The position numbers and the translations under genes were made by a program. A stretch of 18,695 nucleotides of DNA from the IMG/VR virus record IMGVR_UViG_2609459839_000004; one strand, written 5' to 3'. Positions 1 through 7,666 of this stretch are shown here, one piece after another. The notes under the pieces are model-generated. The model was not told where the DNA came from and searched no databases. It saw only the letters and a list, made by a program, of their open reading frames with translations. This DNA is from a virus (taxonomy: Duplodnaviria > Heunggongvirae > Uroviricota > Caudoviricetes). Each line of letters starts with the position of its first letter. The first letter of the stretch is position 1.

Positions 1-522
1 ATGTCAAAGCCAAAATACCCTTTTGAAAAGCGCCTTGAAGTCGTGAATCACTACTTCACAACTGATGATGGTTACAGGATCATCTCGGCACGTTTTGGTG
101 TCCCCCGAACCCAGGTCAGGACATGGGTTGCCCTCTATGAAAAACATGGAGAAAAAGGTTTAATTCCCAAACCTAAAGGCGTTAGTGCTGATCCAGAGTT
201 GCGTATTAAGGTCGTGAAAGCTGTGATCGAGCAGCACATGTCCCTTAATCAGGCTGCTGCTCACTTTATGCTTGCTGGTAGTGGTTCTGTAGCCAGGTGG
301 CTGAAGGTCTATGAAGAGCGCGGAGAAGCTGGTTTACGCGCGCTCAAGATTGGCACCAAAAGAAACATTGCAATATCAGTTGATCCAGAAAAAGCGGCAT
401 CAGCATTGGAGCTGTCAAAAGACCGACGCATTGAGGATCTTGAAAGGCAAGTTCGATTTCTTGAAACGCGGCTTATGTATCTAAAAAAGCTGAAAGCCTT
501 AGCTCATCCCACGAAAAAGTGA
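1..522 (+). CDS. insJ: IS150 transposase OrfA (InsJ), HTH DNA-binding component
   Basis: 173-aa ORF starting MSKPKYPFEKRLEVVNHYF..., recognised as IS150 OrfA; ends just after the slippery heptamer. Confidence 0.9.
   Translation: MSKPKYPFEKRLEVVNHYFTTDDGYRIISARFGVPRTQVRTWVALYEKHGEKGLIPKPKGVSADPELRIKVVKAVIEQHMSLNQAAAHFMLAGSGSVARWLKVYEERGEAGLRALKIGTKRNIAISVDPEKAASALELSKDRRIEDLERQVRFLETRLMYLKKLKALAHPTKK
483..489 (+). other. Programmed -1 ribosomal frameshift site (slippery heptamer A_AAA_AAG)
   Basis: A AAA AAG is in the insJ zero frame (codons cta aaa aag); the -1 frame is open from here into insK. IS3-family elements make OrfAB this way. Confidence 0.7.
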
Positions 523-1370
523 AAGTACTCAACGAGCTAAGGCAGTTTTATCCTCTTGATGAGCTTCTCAGGGCTGCGGAGATACCGCGCAGTACGTTTT
601 ATTATCATCTAAAGGCTCTCAGCAAGCCTGACAAGTATGCGGACGTTAAAAAGCGTATTAGTGAGATTTATCACGAGAATAGAGGCCGATACGGATACCG
701 TAGGGTAACGCTGTCTCTTCATCGAGAAGGGAAACAGATTAACCATAAAGCTGTTCAGCGCCTGATGGGAACCCTCTCACTTAAAGCAGCGATTAAGGTC
801 AAGCGATACCGCTCTTACAGAGGAGAGGTAGGGCAAACCGCCCCTAATGTTCTCCAAAGAGATTTCAAGGCTACGCGGCCAAACGAGAAGTGGGTTACCG
901 ATGTTACTGAATTTGCAGTCAATGGGCGCAAGCTGTATTTGTCTCCAGTAATAGATCTCTTCAACAACGAAGTTATTTCTTACAGCCTTTCGGAAAGACC
1001 AGTGATGAACATGGTTGAGAATATGCTCGATCAGGCATTCAAAAAGCTTAATCCTCACGAGCATCCTGTTCTGCACTCTGACCAGGGATGGCAGTATCGT
1101 ATGAGAAGATATCAAAATATCCTTAAAGAACATGGTATTAAACAAAGCATGTCCAGAAAAGGCAATTGTCTGGATAATGCTGTGGTGGAGTGTTTCTTTG
1201 GAACCTTAAAGTCGGAGTGTTTTTATCTTGATGAGTTCAGTAATATAAGCGAACTGAAGGATGCTGTTACGGAATATATTGAATACTACAACAGCAGAAG
1301 AATTAGCCTGAAATTAAAAGGTCTGACTCCAATTGAATATCGGAATCAGACCTATATGCCTCGTGTTTAA
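519..1370 (+). CDS. insK: IS150 transposase OrfB (InsK), DDE catalytic domain; expressed mainly as an InsJK fusion
   Basis: 283-aa ORF in the -1 frame relative to insJ; the track start at 519 is GTG; integrase-core-like segments ([15 protein letters not shown]) present. Confidence 0.88.
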
Positions 1371-3126: not shown

Positions 3127-3492
3127 ATGACTGAACGCATAGAATTTGTTTTGCCTTACCCGCCAACGGTGAACACTTACTGGCGACGTCGTGGCAGCAC
3201 ATATTTTGTATCAAAAGCCGGTGAGCGTTATCGCCGTGATGTGGCGCTTATTGTTCGCCAGCAGCGGCTGAAATTAAACCTGTCCGGAAGGCTGGCGATA
3301 AAGATTATTGCAGAGCCACCGGATAAGCGCCGCCGCGACCTGGACAATATCCTGAAGGCACCACTGGATGCGCTGACGCATGCCGGACTACTTATAGACG
3401 ACGAGCAGTTTGATGAAATCAATATTGTGCGCGGTCAGCTCGTTCCTGGTGGGCGGCTGGGGATAAAAATCACAGAACTGGAGTGCGCATGA
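3127..3492 (+). CDS. rusA: RusA-family Holliday junction resolvase
   Basis: 121 aa with LPYPPTVNTYWRRRG and RRRDLDNILKAPLDAL motifs as in RusA; typical nin-region position. Confidence 0.85.
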   Translation: MTERIEFVLPYPPTVNTYWRRRGSTYFVSKAGERYRRDVALIVRQQRLKLNLSGRLAIKIIAEPPDKRRRDLDNILKAPLDALTHAGLLIDDEQFDEINIVRGQLVPGGRLGIKITELECA

Positions 3493-4178
3493 ATAACCAG
3501 TATTTACAGTTTGTGCGTGAGCAGCTCATTATCGCCACCGCTGATTTGAGTGGGGCAACAAAAGGTCAGCTTGAAGCCTGGCAAGAGAATGCCATGTTCG
3601 ATACAGGGCGTTACAGGCGTAAAAAAATCCGGTACCGCGATGAAGTGACTGGAAAAATGATAACGCGGGATAATCCACCAATCCCGGGAAAGCAATCGCT
3701 GGCGAAAGGTTCATCAATTGCCCTGGTCAGTCCGGTTGAGTTTTCGACATCATCATGGCGACGCGCCGTTCTGTCTCTTGAAGAGCATCAGAAGGCGTGG
3801 GTGCTGTGGGTATACAGTGAAAATCCGAGTTGGGATTATCAGGTGGTCATTGCGAAATGGGCGTGGGATAAGTTTCAGGTGCATTTTGGCACCAGAAAAA
3901 TTACAGGGAAAACGCTTGAGCGTCTGAAGAAATTAATCTGGCTGGCGGCGCAGGATGTCAGGGGGAGGATTACTGGGCGTGACGTCTACCAGCGACAGGA
4001 ACTTGCCAGACTGTGTGGAGTTAAGCCTGACAACTGGAGCCATAATTATGCGAACTACTGGCGTGAGATGTGCGACATTTTTAAGAAACTCGATACAGAA
4101 TCCTTGATTTGCACCGTGAAAATGAGATCGCAACAAAAAGCGACCTTTTCACGACGAGATATTGCAAAAGTCAATTAA
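3489..4178 (+). CDS. Late-gene antiterminator Q (QuuQ-like family)
   Basis: ~229-aa ORF directly upstream of a promoter-plus-terminator unit and the cargo/lysis region; ATGA overlap with the rusA stop. Family assignment is by synteny and recollection, not a verified alignment. Confidence 0.6.
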   Translation: MNNQYLQFVREQLIIATADLSGATKGQLEAWQENAMFDTGRYRRKKIRYRDEVTGKMITRDNPPIPGKQSLAKGSSIALVSPVEFSTSSWRRAVLSLEEHQKAWVLWVYSENPSWDYQVVIAKWAWDKFQVHFGTRKITGKTLERLKKLIWLAAQDVRGRITGRDVYQRQELARLCGVKPDNWSHNYANYWREMCDIFKKLDTESLICTVKMRSQQKATFSRRDIAKVN

Positions 4179-4191
4179 ATCGCATACATTT
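4163..4191 (+). promoter_or_regulatory. Candidate late promoter pR' (sigma70 -35/-10) overlapping the 3' end of Q
   Basis: TTGCAA (4163-4168), 17-bp spacer, TACATT (4186-4191). Confidence 0.4.
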
Positions 4192-4226
4192 TATGTAAAT
4201 GTGATATTTTGCCGTATAGTGTGTAA

Positions 4227-4249
4227 ACCCGCTTAAATGCGGGTTTTTT
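4227..4249 (+). terminator. tR'-like intrinsic terminator downstream of Q
   Basis: acccgc-ttaaat-gcgggt hairpin followed by a T run, ~35 nt downstream of the predicted start site. Confidence 0.6.
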
Positions 4250-4322
4250 GCTTAACTCTGTGGACCTTTTTATCTGTAGTTGTAAGATATGGATATTCTT
4301 ACAATTTAGGTCGGTGAGCTTA

Positions 4323-5087
4323 ATGGAAGAACAGCACGGTAATTACTTTATAAAACGAATTCAGTTGATTGGAAGAGGTGCATTTGGCTTTGTTGAACAC
4401 GTTAAGGTTTACAACCTCAACAAGGGTGAATGTGGGGATTATGCTAGAAAGGTTTTAGCCCCCGAAAAACCAGAGCTTTTGGCGCAAATAGAGCAGTTTA
4501 GAAGGCGTTTTAAAAGGGAGGTCGTGTATCAATCACATTGCGTACATAGCAATATTGTTCCTATTTATTTGTGCGATTTGTTTGCCGAGAATCCATGGTT
4601 CATTATGGATAAAGCAGAATGTGATCTTGAGCACGAAATAACGAACAACCTTCTTACAACAGATCAAAAAATTTCAATAGTGAAAATGGTATTAGATGGT
4701 GTAGCTCACATCCATGCGAAAGGCTATTTACACAGAGATATAAAACCATTTAATGTCTTGCGATTTAGCGACGGAACATACAAGGTGTCTGATTTTGGTC
4801 TGGTAAAAGATACAAATCCCGAAGGGGATACCACTAAATTGACCGAGATCGGTACCCGTATGGGAAGTACAAGATATATGGCTCCCGAGATTTTATATAA
4901 TGCCGAGTATTCAGTTAAGACTGATGTTTATGCGGTGGGGCGGTTAATTGAGGACTTAAATTTAGATGATAAAAAAATAAAGCCTATCATAGCGAAGTGT
5001 ACCAGGATGGATAAAGATGATAGATATCAGACAATAGATGATGTGGCGTTTGATTTTGTGCATTCTTTTTTAAGGAGTGAGTCATGA
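4323..5087 (+). CDS. Eukaryotic-like (Hanks-type) Ser/Thr protein kinase, minimal catalytic domain
   Basis: Gly-rich loop GRGAFGFV, putative catalytic Lys in YARKV, catalytic loop HRDIKPFN, DFG, YMAPE, DVYAVG; AT-rich codon usage unlike the flanking phage genes. Confidence 0.85.
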   Translation: MEEQHGNYFIKRIQLIGRGAFGFVEHVKVYNLNKGECGDYARKVLAPEKPELLAQIEQFRRRFKREVVYQSHCVHSNIVPIYLCDLFAENPWFIMDKAECDLEHEITNNLLTTDQKISIVKMVLDGVAHIHAKGYLHRDIKPFNVLRFSDGTYKVSDFGLVKDTNPEGDTTKLTEIGTRMGSTRYMAPEILYNAEYSVKTDVYAVGRLIEDLNLDDKKIKPIIAKCTRMDKDDRYQTIDDVAFDFVHSFLRSES

Positions 5088-5827
5088 TTCAGCTGATAGC
5101 GACTTCATCATTCTCGTATCCAAAAGAACCAGGTAGGGTCAACGAAGATTCATTGCTTCCTCCCAAAATTGTAGGGGATGGCATCTTATTTGCCGTAGCT
5201 GATGGTGTAGGTTCATACACTGGTGCCAGTCAGGCTTCATCAATGGCAATTGCTGAGCTTTCAGCATTGACAAGCTTATCTTTTGACACAGTTCCGGATG
5301 TATTTGATGAAGTTAAGCGAAAGGTTATGTCGTTAGCTGATGTTAATGATGAGTTCGATAAAGCTGCTACTACACTTACGTTTTGTTATGTTTGTGATAG
5401 CGGAATTATTATTGGTCATATTGGTGATTGTCGTTTGTATTGCATTGGAGAGAAGAAAGCATACCAATTGACGAAGGACGATACCAGGCATCAGATGCTA
5501 ATTGATCAGAATATTTTTAAACCCAGAGATTTGAAGGATAAACCGGGCAAAAATATCTTAACGACGGCTATAGCCTCAAATGTTGATATGGAATACGACT
5601 GTGATTTTATCACATGGAAAGATTTACCTAGTATTAACGGGGTATATCATCTGTGTATCATGTCTGATGGGGTTCATAACGTTTGGGAAAAACGCCCCAG
5701 ATTTACATCAAATACGATGAGTAATAGTCAGAAGTTTTCTAATGGCATTTTGCGTCGTATAGAGAGAGCCGGACCTGATGATGACTTTTCTTTAGTAAGT
5801 ATAATGGTGCGTGTGACGTCAGATTAG
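5084..5827 (+). CDS. PP2C-family (PPM) Ser/Thr protein phosphatase
   Basis: Motifs NEDS, AVADGVGSY, GHIGDCRLY, LTKDDT, MSDGV in PP2C order; AAGGAG SD inside the kinase 3' end; ATGA start/stop overlap with the kinase. Confidence 0.8.
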   Translation: MIQLIATSSFSYPKEPGRVNEDSLLPPKIVGDGILFAVADGVGSYTGASQASSMAIAELSALTSLSFDTVPDVFDEVKRKVMSLADVNDEFDKAATTLTFCYVCDSGIIIGHIGDCRLYCIGEKKAYQLTKDDTRHQMLIDQNIFKPRDLKDKPGKNILTTAIASNVDMEYDCDFITWKDLPSINGVYHLCIMSDGVHNVWEKRPRFTSNTMSNSQKFSNGILRRIERAGPDDDFSLVSIMVRVTSD

Positions 5828-5899
5828 TTGTATAAACTCAGTAGGGAATGCTAATTTCACATACAACATAGTTAAAGAAAACTTAATTTTAATGTAAAA

Positions 5900-5924
5900 A
5901 GGCTGCCCTCAGGCGGTCTTTTTA
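5900..5924 (+). terminator. Intrinsic terminator after the kinase/phosphatase operon
   Basis: ggctgcc-ctca-ggcggtc hairpin (with G-U pairs) followed by ttttt. Confidence 0.4.
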
Positions 5925-6046
5925 TGCTCGAAAATTGATGCAGTACGTTAAACGCGCTGGTGGTTGCGAATACCGGTCTTTCAGCTTGCTGGCTTTTTAG
6001 ACAAGAGTTATTGGTATGTCACGTTAACCAGAAAAGGGAAAAAGAC

Positions 6047-6244
6047 ATGCTAAAACAGCAGGATATGACCGAAACCGCCAGAGTGGTGTTTAATGAATTA
6101 AGCGTCACCGAACCGGCGACCGTCGGGGAAATTGCGCAGAATACTTACCTTTCACGCGAACGCTGCCAGTTAATACTGACTCAGCTTGTTATGGCGGGTC
6201 TGGCAGATTATCAGTTCGGTTGTTACAGACGCCTTCCTCAGTGA
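6047..6244 (+). CDS. Small winged-helix/HTH-like protein (65 aa) upstream of the methyltransferase
   Basis: ATG at 6047 after a purine-rich stretch; segment ATVGEIAQNTYLSRERCQLILTQLVMAGL resembles an HTH recognition unit. Confidence 0.4.
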   Translation: MLKQQDMTETARVVFNELSVTEPATVGEIAQNTYLSRERCQLILTQLVMAGLADYQFGCYRRLPQ

Positions 6245-6394
6245 AGGTTTTTTAATTTGTGGTAATGGGCGGCTGGTGGGTGTTAGCGGCACCTGCCAGC
6301 CATCTGCTCATGCGTTGGGGTCACAAGCAAACCTCAGGCCCATCTGCTTTGCGCAAAAGCGGTATGAGCCTATCAGAGAAGTGCTTATTGATCT

Positions 6395-7444
6395 ATGGCC
6401 AATACTGTAAAAATATCCAGTTGTGAGTTAATCAACGCTGATTGCCTGGAATTTATCCAGACCTTACCGGAAAATTCTGTCGATCTGATAGTCACAGACC
6501 CGCCATACTTTAAAGTGAAGCCCGAGGGCTGGGATAACCAGTGGGAGGGCGACGATGATTACCTGAAATGGCTGGACCAGTGTCTGGCGCAGTTCTGGCG
6601 GGTACTGAAGCCTGCCGGAAGTCTTTACCTGTTCTGTGGTCATCGCCTGGCATCTGACACCGAAATCATGATGCGTGAGCGCTTTAATGTGCTGAACCAC
6701 ATTATCTGGGCGAAGCCGTCCGGACGCTGGAACGGGTGCAATAAGGAAAGTCTGCGGGCGTATTTTCCGGCAACAGAGCGCATTCTGTTTGCAGAACATT
6801 ATCAGGGACCGTATCGCCCGAAAGATGATGGCTATGTGGAGCAGGGGCGCGAGCTAAAACAGCACGTCATGGCCCCGCTGATTTCTTACTTTCGTGATGC
6901 GCGTAAATCACTGGGAATAACGTCAAAACAGATAGCGGAAGCCACCGGAAAGAAAAACATGGCTTCGCACTGGTTTGGTACCAGTCAGTGGCAGTTACCG
7001 AACGAGGGTGATTACAACAAATTGCAGGCGTTGTTTGCGCGTGTTGCGGCAGAAAAACATCAGCGCGGGGAACTGGAAAAGCCACACCACCAGCTGGTCA
7101 GCACATACAGTGAGCTGAACCGGCAGTATACGGAACTGCTGAGTGAATATAAAAATTTGCGGCGGTATTTCGGTGTGACGGCGCAGGTTCCGTACACCGA
7201 TGTCTGGACGCATAAACCGGTGCAGCACTATCCAGGGAAACATCCGTGCGAAAAACCGGCAGAAATGCTGCAGCAGATAATCAGCGCAAGTAGTCGTCCT
7301 GGTGATCTGGTTGCGGATTTTTTCATGGGGTCGGGTTCAACGGTAAAAGCGGCGATGGCACTGGGGCGTCGTGCGATTGGTGTTGAGCTGGAGACCGGAC
7401 GTTTTGAGCAGACAGTCAGGGAAGTTCAGGATTTAATCGTTTGA
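6395..7444 (+). CDS. Orphan DNA methyltransferase, beta-class amino-MTase (N6-adenine or N4-cytosine)
   Basis: DPPY catalytic motif near the N-terminus and SAM-binding FxGxG (DFFMGSGST) near the C-terminus, the beta-class order; no adjacent restriction endonuclease gene seen. Confidence 0.85.
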   Translation: MANTVKISSCELINADCLEFIQTLPENSVDLIVTDPPYFKVKPEGWDNQWEGDDDYLKWLDQCLAQFWRVLKPAGSLYLFCGHRLASDTEIMMRERFNVLNHIIWAKPSGRWNGCNKESLRAYFPATERILFAEHYQGPYRPKDDGYVEQGRELKQHVMAPLISYFRDARKSLGITSKQIAEATGKKNMASHWFGTSQWQLPNEGDYNKLQALFARVAAEKHQRGELEKPHHQLVSTYSELNRQYTELLSEYKNLRRYFGVTAQVPYTDVWTHKPVQHYPGKHPCEKPAEMLQQIISASSRPGDLVADFFMGSGSTVKAAMALGRRAIGVELETGRFEQTVREVQDLIV

Positions 7445-7455
7445 AACGGATGAGA

Positions 7456-7484
7456 TTGCAGAATTAATTACGCACCATTATTAT
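7456..7484 (+). promoter_or_regulatory. Candidate sigma70 promoter for the tRNA cluster
   Basis: TTGCAG (7456-7461), 17-bp spacer, TATTAT (7479-7484), ~10 nt upstream of the first tRNA 5' end. Confidence 0.45.
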
Positions 7485-7493
7485 TCTGCTCCC

Positions 7494-7569
7494 GGCCCTT
7501 TAGCTCAGTGGTGAGAGCGAGCGACTCATAATCGCCAGGTCGCTGGTTCAAATCCAGCAAGGGCCACCA
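7494..7569 (+). tRNA. tRNA with CAU anticodon, most likely tRNA-Ile2 (lysidine-type, reads AUA)
   Basis: Cloverleaf: acceptor GGCCCTT/AAGGGCC, D-arm GCTC-AGTGGTGA-GAGC, anticodon loop CTCATAA, T-arm GCTGG-TTCAAAT-CCAGC, encoded CCA. Resembles ileX more than elongator Met as recalled; CAU alone cannot separate Ile2 from Met. Confidence 0.8.
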
Positions 7570-7576
7570 TCACATA

Positions 7577-7653
7577 CCGCCATTAGCTCATCAGGAAAGA
7601 GCGCCAGCTTTCGAAGCTGGTTGCGCGGAGTTCGGGTCCCCGAAGGCGGTCCA
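7577..7653 (+). tRNA. tRNA-Arg(UCG)-like, non-canonical; possibly degenerate
   Basis: Anticodon stem-loop CCAGC-TTTCGAA-GCTGG gives anticodon UCG; D-arm GCTC...GAGC; acceptor starts with C and has one mismatch, T-stem has one mismatch, T-loop TTCGGGT lacks the usual A58. Boundaries approximate. Confidence 0.5.
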
Positions 7654-7666
7654 TTATCTGTATCCT

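Follow-up and report, generated by a model that had tools for sequence, protein, structure and literature searches.

In lambdoid phages, the late promoter pR′ initiates transcription constitutively, transcription is terminated at tR′ during lysogeny, and read-through on induction depends on the antiterminator Q (PMC4914094, PMC7547250). PF06323, the Q82 family, is one of three mutually unrelated families of Q (PMC9388147). In phage 82, the Q-binding element was located in the spacer between the −35 and −10 hexamers (PMC4914094). The 82 pR′ has an extended −10-like pause inducer that is nearer to the consensus than that of lambda, a GCC “discriminator” at +15-17, a U at +25 and a pause at +25/26 (PMC5001585). 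Here we analyzed an 18,695-nucleotide (nt) stretch of DNA (IMG/VR virus record IMGVR_UViG_2609459839_000004, Caudoviricetes; hereafter “the window”), which belongs to a lambdoid prophage of E. coli and carries a kinase gene and a phosphatase gene behind Q. Positions 4162-4250 very probably control the late genes of a lambdoid prophage, as a unit of the phage-82 type. The full statement, in which this unit also makes expression of the cargo dependent on Q, we hold to be probable on balance. The features concerned are as follows:

3483..4178, plus strand: antiterminator Q of the phage-82 family (Pfam PF06323, E 4e-84, profile positions 1-217 of 220)
4162..4190, plus strand: pR′ promoter, with −35 TTGCAA at 4162-4167, a 17-bp spacer at 4168-4184 and −10 TACATT at 4185-4190
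4197..4197, plus strand: predicted transcription start (+1, A), placed by register with L004, the proxy for 82 pR′
4202..4213, plus strand: predicted sigma-70-dependent pause element, TGaTATTTT (4202-4210, +6 to +14) followed by GCC (+15 to +17)
4225..4249, plus strand: intrinsic terminator tR′1, with stem AAACCCGC (4225-4232) / GCGGGTTT (4239-4246), loop TTAAAT and six T at 4244-4249
4251..4322, plus strand: kinase leader, with weak promoter candidates, a hairpin at 4274-4310 and the ribosome-binding site GGTGAG at 4313-4318
4323..5087, plus strand: Hanks-type Ser/Thr kinase cargo, 254 amino acids (aa) (Pfam Pkinase, E 2e-33; HRD, DFG and APE motifs present)
5084..5827, plus strand: PP2C-type phosphatase cargo (Pfam PP2C_2, E 2e-14), whose start overlaps the kinase stop (ATGA)
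5894..5925, plus strand: intrinsic terminator tR′2, hairpin 5901-5918 (5901-5923 overall), −18.3 kcal/mol with the A/T extension, z = −5.7

An initial annotation, made from the sequence alone, had proposed a lambdoid late promoter followed by a Q-antiterminated terminator. This proposal holds and can be narrowed to the phage-82 type: a PF06323 Q gene lies upstream, the promoter is in the 82 register, a pause element with a G/C triplet fits that of 82 pR′, and a terminator lies downstream. The Q protein is 68% identical to phage 82 Q over its full length, and the gene ends with a TAA stop codon at 4176-4178; RefSeq relatives of this Q start at 3489. The gene is a mosaic. Its first 472 nt (3483-3954) are 88% identical to the Q genes of PPompW and Stx2a phages, and a megablast search of the last ~220 nt (3955-4178) together with the pR′ region against sequenced phages gave no match. 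The C-terminal part of Q appears to have been inherited together with the promoter spacer, the expected site of the Q-binding element.

The promoter was first described as a near-consensus TTGCAA-17-TACATT overlapping the end of Q. Its positions and 17-bp spacer stand, with the −35 hexamer falling within the last Q codons, and are borne out by homology and conservation. “Near-consensus” was an overstatement, as only 8 of the 12 hexamer positions agree with the sigma-70 consensus. This is below the threshold of our consensus promoter scan (9/12), so pR′ was not listed by it, and the scan found 23 matches in the window where 23 were expected from shuffles. We consider pR′ a real promoter because of its homology and conservation, not because of the quality of its hexamers. 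The composite motif TTGCAA-N17-YAYNTT-N11-TGATAY occurs once in the window (0 expected, 200 shuffles) and at the identical place behind every Q82-family Q gene examined. Judged by these motifs, TTGCAA-17-TACATT is the homologue of the characterized 82 pR′. GenBank record X92588 stops at the Q stop codon, and a search of the full-text literature for the published 82 pR′ sequence, using the string GATATTTTGCC, returned only unrelated papers. L004, with a Q that shares 98% identity with 82 Q, served as a proxy, along with the positional description of 82 pR′ in papers.

Counting as +1 the A seven bases past the −10 hexamer, L004 has an extended −10-like TGaTATTTT at +6 to +14, GCC at +15 to +17 and T at +25. 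These features match those reported for 82 pR′, and because the window is in the same register as L004, we place its +1 at 4197. In this register a pause is predicted near 4220-4222 (+24 to +26). The pause element was missed by the initial annotation, although no other feature is as diagnostic of the unit. Of the 21 sites compared below, 20 retain TGnTAYnnT and a G/C-rich triplet behind it, and the remaining site reads CAGATAT.

The hairpin and T run proposed about 35 nt past the promoter are present. The −10 hexamer and the start of the hairpin are 34 nt apart, and the interval first given, 4227-4249, is accurate to within 2-3 nt. It folds with −13.5 kcal/mol (z = −4.3), and none of 200 shuffles folds equally well. 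Its d-score, calculated with what is reportedly the formula of d'Aubenton-Carafa from 1990, is +34, and those of the other terminators listed are also favorable. Positions 4225-4249 are thus a good, credible tR′, which is predicted to release an RNA of ~52-54 nt (4197 to ~4250). The stem is kept and the loop changed in 55989, L046 and MINF_2E, and Cronobacter phage phiES15 has a compensatory stem variant (CCCAC/GTGGG) with the hairpin at +28. Hairpins of this type, AAACCCGC/GCGGGTTT with loops that vary, stand ahead of unrelated cargo in L081, L096, L139 and L158. We therefore rejected the possibility that tR′1 is part of the kinase cassette: since unrelated genes follow the same hairpin type, tR′1 is part of the Q/pR′ module, with the cargo junction immediately behind the T run (~4251).

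What the DNA displays directly is the homology and conservation of these cis elements, along with the structures of the terminators and the boundaries of the cassette. When the 3′ end of Q plus downstream DNA was aligned for five E. coli prophages, L004 among them, a block proved to be conserved through 4214 that comprises TTGCAA, a TAYRTT −10 hexamer, TAAAT and TGATATTTTGCC. Past this block the sequences diverge, each with its own hairpin and T run. We then compared 21 sites, made up of E. coli examples and 16 loci from contigs chosen as one genome per species; they represent E. coli, Shigella, Atlantibacter, Enterobacter, Franconibacter, Citrobacter, Klebsiella, Raoultella and Buttiauxella. 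The architecture is kept in all 21, with small variations in the hexamers of a few, and TTGCAA with 17-bp spacing in 18. A scan based on ViennaRNA found a clean terminator within 170 nt in 17 of the 21 sites, compared with 22% of dinucleotide shuffles; by inspection, the other four (E. coli ECMA0423, Shigella flexneri) appear to have decayed versions of the terminator.

A scan of viral contigs with the composite motif gave at least 120 sites, and 76 leader clusters among the matches listed. As TGATAY was part of the search pattern, the presence of the pause motif in these sites is built in. Among the matches listed, a terminator was found in 70 of the 76 leader clusters, and the hairpins start mostly between +28 and +71. 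The starts cluster at +28 to +34 and at +43 to +53, with little between (viral-contig leaders L056-L175, among the matches listed). Leaders of the Q82 type thus fall into two length classes, and the window, with its hairpin at +29, is in the “short” class. RNAalifold gave no consensus for 14 short-type leaders, MAFFT having shifted the hairpin register, and per-sequence folds and direct reading were used instead. In the E. coli relatives of the window, homology is lost precisely where the pause element ends (+18), which suggests recombination within this conserved motif.

Of 5426 complete E. coli genomes, 1810 carry the block of Q end and pR′, and only 49 the kinase cassette. In a rough census of the first open reading frame (ORF) after 64 distinct leaders, among the matches listed, about 16 were holins and the rest varied cargo, including methylases, DUF5677 proteins, HNH and Rha proteins, STAND/AAA proteins and one kinase. 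The site directly after the terminator is a general cargo hotspot.

In the window this site is occupied by the kinase and phosphatase genes, on the late strand between pR′/tR′ and the lysis genes. G+C content is 0.38-0.40 over ~4200-5900 and ~0.50 in the flanks. By composition and boundaries, the pair is a low-G+C cargo cassette (~4251-5899) between two tR′-type terminators. It is 99-100% conserved in ~20 genomes and 95-96% in ~29 more. The phosphatase has a match to the Stp1/IreP-like NCBIfam model that is under the curated cut-off, and the PADLOC matches of the kinase (mad6, 1e-39; PD-T4-6, 1e-34; Stk2, 5e-28) are matches to the kinase domain only. Literature searches by protein accession or locus tag returned nothing on these proteins or their arrangement.

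Upstream of the kinase, a near-palindrome or RNA hairpin at 4274-4310 (TTGTAAGA-N9-TCTTACAA; −10.6 kcal/mol, z = −3.7) overlaps the −10-like TACAAT of the leader and lies just upstream of the ribosome-binding site. One of its pairs changes from G:C to U:G in 55989, and the stem is poorly kept in L046. We considered whether the near-palindrome at 4280-4304 is a protein operator and do not claim this: the two changes in 55989 keep RNA pairing and break the DNA symmetry, and L046 does not preserve the stem.

The pair recurs elsewhere. Viral contig L046 has a Q82-type Q, pR′/tR′, the kinase (94% identity), PP2C, holins and lysozyme, and phiES15, a functional phage that was induced by UV, has the same order from Q to lysis with a kinase that is 40% identical. 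On contig L049 the pair (kinase 63% identical) lies between a Q-lambda-type Q (PF03589), with a lambda-like pR′ and terminator, and a holin. In phage Flotzy, the pair is located between Rz and the terminase.

The terminators between the cargo and the holin number five. The initial annotation had listed four more beyond tR′1 (after the phosphatase, after the tRNAs, at 7980-8005 and before the holin), all of which are present and score well; one was added here. The region between tR′2 and the holin comprises:

6047..7743, plus strand: Stx (Shiga toxin)-phage-type leader module, with a 65-aa ORF at 6047-6244, a terminator at 6231-6248, a DNA methylase at 6395-7444 and tRNA-Met(CAT)/Arg/Arg at 7494-7743
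6231-6248 (to 6253), plus strand: terminator of the 65-aa ORF, additional to those first listed, with a loop that varies among relatives
7758..7782, plus strand: terminator after the tRNAs (stem 7758-7775), −11.4 kcal/mol, z = −3.5
7818-8007, plus strand: STnc100 small RNA (sRNA) gene, full-length Rfam match with 132 bits (gathering score 47)
7977..8005, plus strand: terminator forming the 3′ end of STnc100 (stem 7977-7998), −20.3 kcal/mol
8033-8368, minus strand: IraM anti-adapter gene (NCBIfam NF007393, 162 bits, cut-off 121)
9057..9092, plus strand: terminator just upstream of the S21-type holin (stem 9057-9085), −17 kcal/mol, z = −5.2
9125-9340, plus strand: S21-type holin (Pfam PF04971), with two in-frame ATGs three codons apart, at 9125 and 9134

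The Stx2a phage EH2201 has its tR′, the 65-aa ORF, the methylase and the three tRNAs, followed directly by stx2A, and the window carries the same module from 5900 onward. The hairpin at 5901-5918 aligns with two other tR′: that of prophage WP5-S18, whose Q is of the Q82 type, and that of EH2201, whose Q has 126 aa. The stems differ by compensatory changes (CCGCC/GGCGG, CCACC/GGTGG, GCTGCC/GGCGGT), and all three loci are highly similar in the sequence that follows. On this alignment, tR′2 is the positional homologue of the tR′ of EH2201 and WP5-S18, and since these hairpins align, the cassette is bracketed by two tR′-type terminators and lies upstream of the stx position. In the window, the stx slot is occupied by STnc100 and iraM. 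The suggestion that the kinase operon lies directly behind a pR′/tR′ unit “as stx does” is therefore right about the direct position and imprecise about the likeness to stx, because the kinase is upstream of the stx-type leader.

The 65-aa ORF has weak similarity to the winged helix of TrmB/DprA and directly follows tR′ in the window (tR′2), WP5-S18 and EH2201. In WP5-S18 (L003 3124-3313), the STnc100 element occurs 565 nt after Q. We rejected STnc100 as a pR′-tR′ transcript like lambda 6S, as the region between Q and S in lambda (6S) gives no STnc100 match; in the literature STnc100 is a separate prophage sRNA related to PasD. The gene iraM is opposite in strand inside the late operon and lies in a second low-G+C island (0.32-0.35). 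The two ATGs of the holin are a holin/antiholin dual-start arrangement. A longer holin ORF from 9047 would span the terminator at 9057-9085, and this is probably not the real start.

On the plus strand, the genes of the window are, from the left, an insertion sequence (IS) 3-family transposase, DUF968, RusA, Q, the Ser/Thr kinase, the PP2C phosphatase, the 65-aa ORF and the DNA methylase, then tRNA-Met(CAT), tRNA-Arg, tRNA-Arg, STnc100, iraM (minus strand) and a DUF1737 ORF, and finally the S21-type holin, DUF1327, lysozyme, Rz and remnants of head and tail genes. Over positions 3900-6000, the DNA matches strain E275a with 100% identity and enterotoxigenic E. coli (ETEC) E24377A with 99.9%.

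We propose that the unit would work as follows. The constitutive sigma-70 promoter pR′, overlapping the end of Q, would initiate at ~4197, sigma-70 would re-bind at the extended −10-like element (+6 to +14), and RNA polymerase would stall near +25. Without Q, the polymerase would escape and terminate at tR′1, and the ~52-54-nt RNA would be released. On induction Q would be made, and Q bound at the spacer would load onto the paused complex; the Q-modified polymerase could then pass tR′1, the kinase and PP2C genes, tR′2 and at least four further terminators into holin-lysozyme-Rz. In the lysogen, the cassette would receive only the leak through tR′1, and tR′2 would stop this leak before the lysis genes. 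Given the established behavior of lambdoid pR′, the pair would be the first late transcript of the Q-modified polymerase. Expression of the cargo is most likely tied to induction and dependent on Q.

Several observations weigh against this Q-dependent scheme. The window promoter spacer differs from that of 82 at ~8 of 17 positions, and its recognition by the window Q is assumed from their co-inheritance only. Start, pause, Q loading and terminator efficiency, and hence the Q-dependence of the cargo, are points that we infer. The kinase leader has its own promoter candidates: TGGACC (4261-4266)-16-TAAGAT (4283-4288), which matches the consensus at 8/12 positions, is kept in L046 and improves to 9/12 in 55989 (TAATAT), and a −10-like TACAAT (4300-4305). 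On L049, a promoter-like site (10/12) is located 65 nt upstream of the diverged kinase. In E. coli ChlosBP-23-1 (L024 3749-5214), a pair whose kinase is 47% identical in aa sequence comes directly after a cI-like S24 repressor gene, in the same orientation, and since it is in the repressor operon, its position implies expression in the lysogen. The similarity of the kinase to defense kinases and this paralogue in a repressor operon suggest a role in the uninduced lysogen. An IS element lies at the left end of the prophage. The structural region lacks the large terminase subunit, the portal, the protease and most tail genes, the major tail gene included.

The promoter candidates and the repressor-operon paralogue bear mostly on one alternative. 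The pR′/tR′ unit could be real and the cassette nevertheless an autonomous “moron” with a weak sigma-70 promoter of its own that is active in the lysogen, with tR′1 and tR′2 serving mainly as insulators and the kinase and its antidote as anti-phage defense, to which Q would add late expression. The TGGACC-16-TAAGAT and TACAAT sites, the stronger site ahead of the homologous kinase on L049 and the matches to PD-T4-6, Stk2 and mad6 would fit this. So would the ChlosBP-23-1 paralogue, which is in the position of the 933W kinase, a protein co-transcribed with cI that aborts HK97 infection (PMC3564112), and the finding that prophage kinase-kinase-phosphatase (KKP) modules defend against lytic phages (PMC11341870). 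However, sites at the 8/12 level are common by chance in AT-rich DNA, and neither the window leader nor the equivalent 125-nt region of phiES15 has a site of 9/12 or better. The consensus scan of the plus strand likewise found none at this level between tR′1 and the kinase start, or within 5661-10912. Five independent placements in late operons (window, L046, L049, phiES15, Flotzy) argue that the link to late expression is not accidental. An autonomous cassette is possible but, in our judgment, unlikely. The ChlosBP-23-1 pair occupies the slot of rexAB and of the 933W stk gene, and the module thus occurs in lysogen-expressed and in late-operon positions, in different prophages.

The state of the prophage raises a second alternative, that the unit is an inert relic here, with Q no longer expressed upon SOS and the kinase and phosphatase silent or made by leak only. 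The prophage copy is defective and cannot make virions. The IS3-family transposase genes orfA/orfB (HTH_28 and rve domains) occupy 1-1370 (plus strand), the left edge of the window, ahead of DUF968-RusA-Q. In the structural region (12327-18166), a deletion has left the small terminase subunit Nu1, a 130-aa ORF of no known function, D, E, FI, FII, Z and U and, after these, fragments of the tail genes I and J; Nu1 directly precedes the D/E head genes. Other copies are also damaged: STEC388 has an IS1 beside the kinase, E275a an IS2 after the PP2C gene, and the late region of E24377A is degraded. Against a relic, Q, pR′, the pause element, both tR′, the kinase, PP2C and the lysis genes are all intact as ORFs or motifs, the cassette is conserved in the genomes counted above, and the related prophage of E275a has complete early and structural modules. 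We regard an inert unit as improbable.

The IS1 in STEC388 (L023 2289-2986) lies 11 nt upstream of the kinase start, with the whole interval from the exonuclease gene to the kinase deleted, and the IS2 in E275a (L176 16215-17443) separates the PP2C gene from the 65-aa ORF. IS elements are thus found at both edges of the kinase cassette, in different strains.

That the hexamers and hairpin are chance matches with no regulatory role, as hexamers of 8/12 and a frequency of promoter matches no higher than in shuffles might suggest, is effectively refuted by conservation, given that the composite motif is not expected even once, its register is kept across genera and terminators follow in 70 of the 76 leader clusters among the matches listed.

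The reading that we prefer, a phage-82-type unit on which the cargo would depend, is what the lambdoid paradigm predicts. The design is well known and mostly ordinary, and the current understanding of antitermination is unchanged. The results show that the phage-82-type antitermination switch is widespread and rigidly conserved down to the pause element, with methylases, DUF5677 proteins, STAND/AAA ATPases, HNH nucleases and the kinase/PP2C pair as cargo at its hotspot. Stx and non-Stx phages may recombine with each other at conserved regulatory motifs such as the pause element and tR′. The architecture also offers a concrete and inexpensive way to ask whether a defense-like kinase serves the lytic cycle or the lysogen.

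The most interesting residue is the recurrent placement of a defense-like kinase/phosphatase pair between two terminators in late operons. The pair follows Q proteins of two families (Q82 in the window, L046 and phiES15; Q-lambda in L049), sits between the lysis genes and the terminase in Flotzy, and has kinase identities down to 40%. For these reasons we tentatively raise, as a rather doubtful extension, that it is a conserved late-operon module and not a chance passenger, with a design of two levels. In the lysogen, the leak through tR′1 would supply a low, protective dose of a toxic kinase and its antidote, and tR′2 would shield the lysis genes from this leak. Q would later bring a burst of kinase, ahead of all other late products, with which the phage could take over the host or exclude competing phages. 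The 52-54-nt RNA could act as an Hfq-binding sRNA like StxS.

Among known systems, the defense modules resemble the cassette in protein content. Like KKP (PfkA/PfkB/PfpC), PD-T4-6, Stk2 and the 933W Stk, the window has a Hanks-type kinase of a temperate phage, here with a PP2C phosphatase, and the matches to the PD-T4-6, Stk2 and mad6 hidden Markov models are strong. KKP is defined by PP2C, kinase and kinase, with clusters filtered further by the status of cold-shock (CSD) and FHA domains (PMC11341870). In contrast, the window has two genes, one kinase and then PP2C, and Pfam finds the kinase domain only. We considered the cargo as a KKP module and rejected this, as gene number and order differ. 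Also unlike the defense modules, the pair is in a late operon and not in a lysogen-expressed one.

Stx phages resemble the window in arrangement. Their pR′-tR′ region, the source of StxS (PMC7547250), is likewise a constitutive late promoter terminated directly downstream in lysogeny, the cargo again sits between Q and the genes for lysis, and with EH2201 the window shares the tR′, the 65-aa ORF, the methylase and the tRNA Met/Arg/Arg genes. The Q families probably differ, the Q of EH2201 having 126 aa. The window RNA is predicted to be ~52-54 nt, whereas StxS is 258 nt and is processed to 74 nt (PMC7547250), and the kinase cassette precedes the Stx-type tR′ instead of following the tRNAs.

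The closest system is the phage 82 pR′ studied by the Roberts and Hochschild laboratories (PMC5001585, PMC4914094). The window differs from it in the −10 hexamer (TACATT vs. TATATT) and at the spacer positions noted above, diverges from +18 with a 1-nt shift of register before the pause site, and has its hairpin at +29, compared with ~+50 in the 82-like leader, with cargo genes next and not a holin. The two share the Q family (68% identity), TTGCAA overlapping the end of Q, the 17-bp spacer, the extended −10-like element at +6 to +14, GCC at +15 to +17 and an intrinsic terminator soon after.

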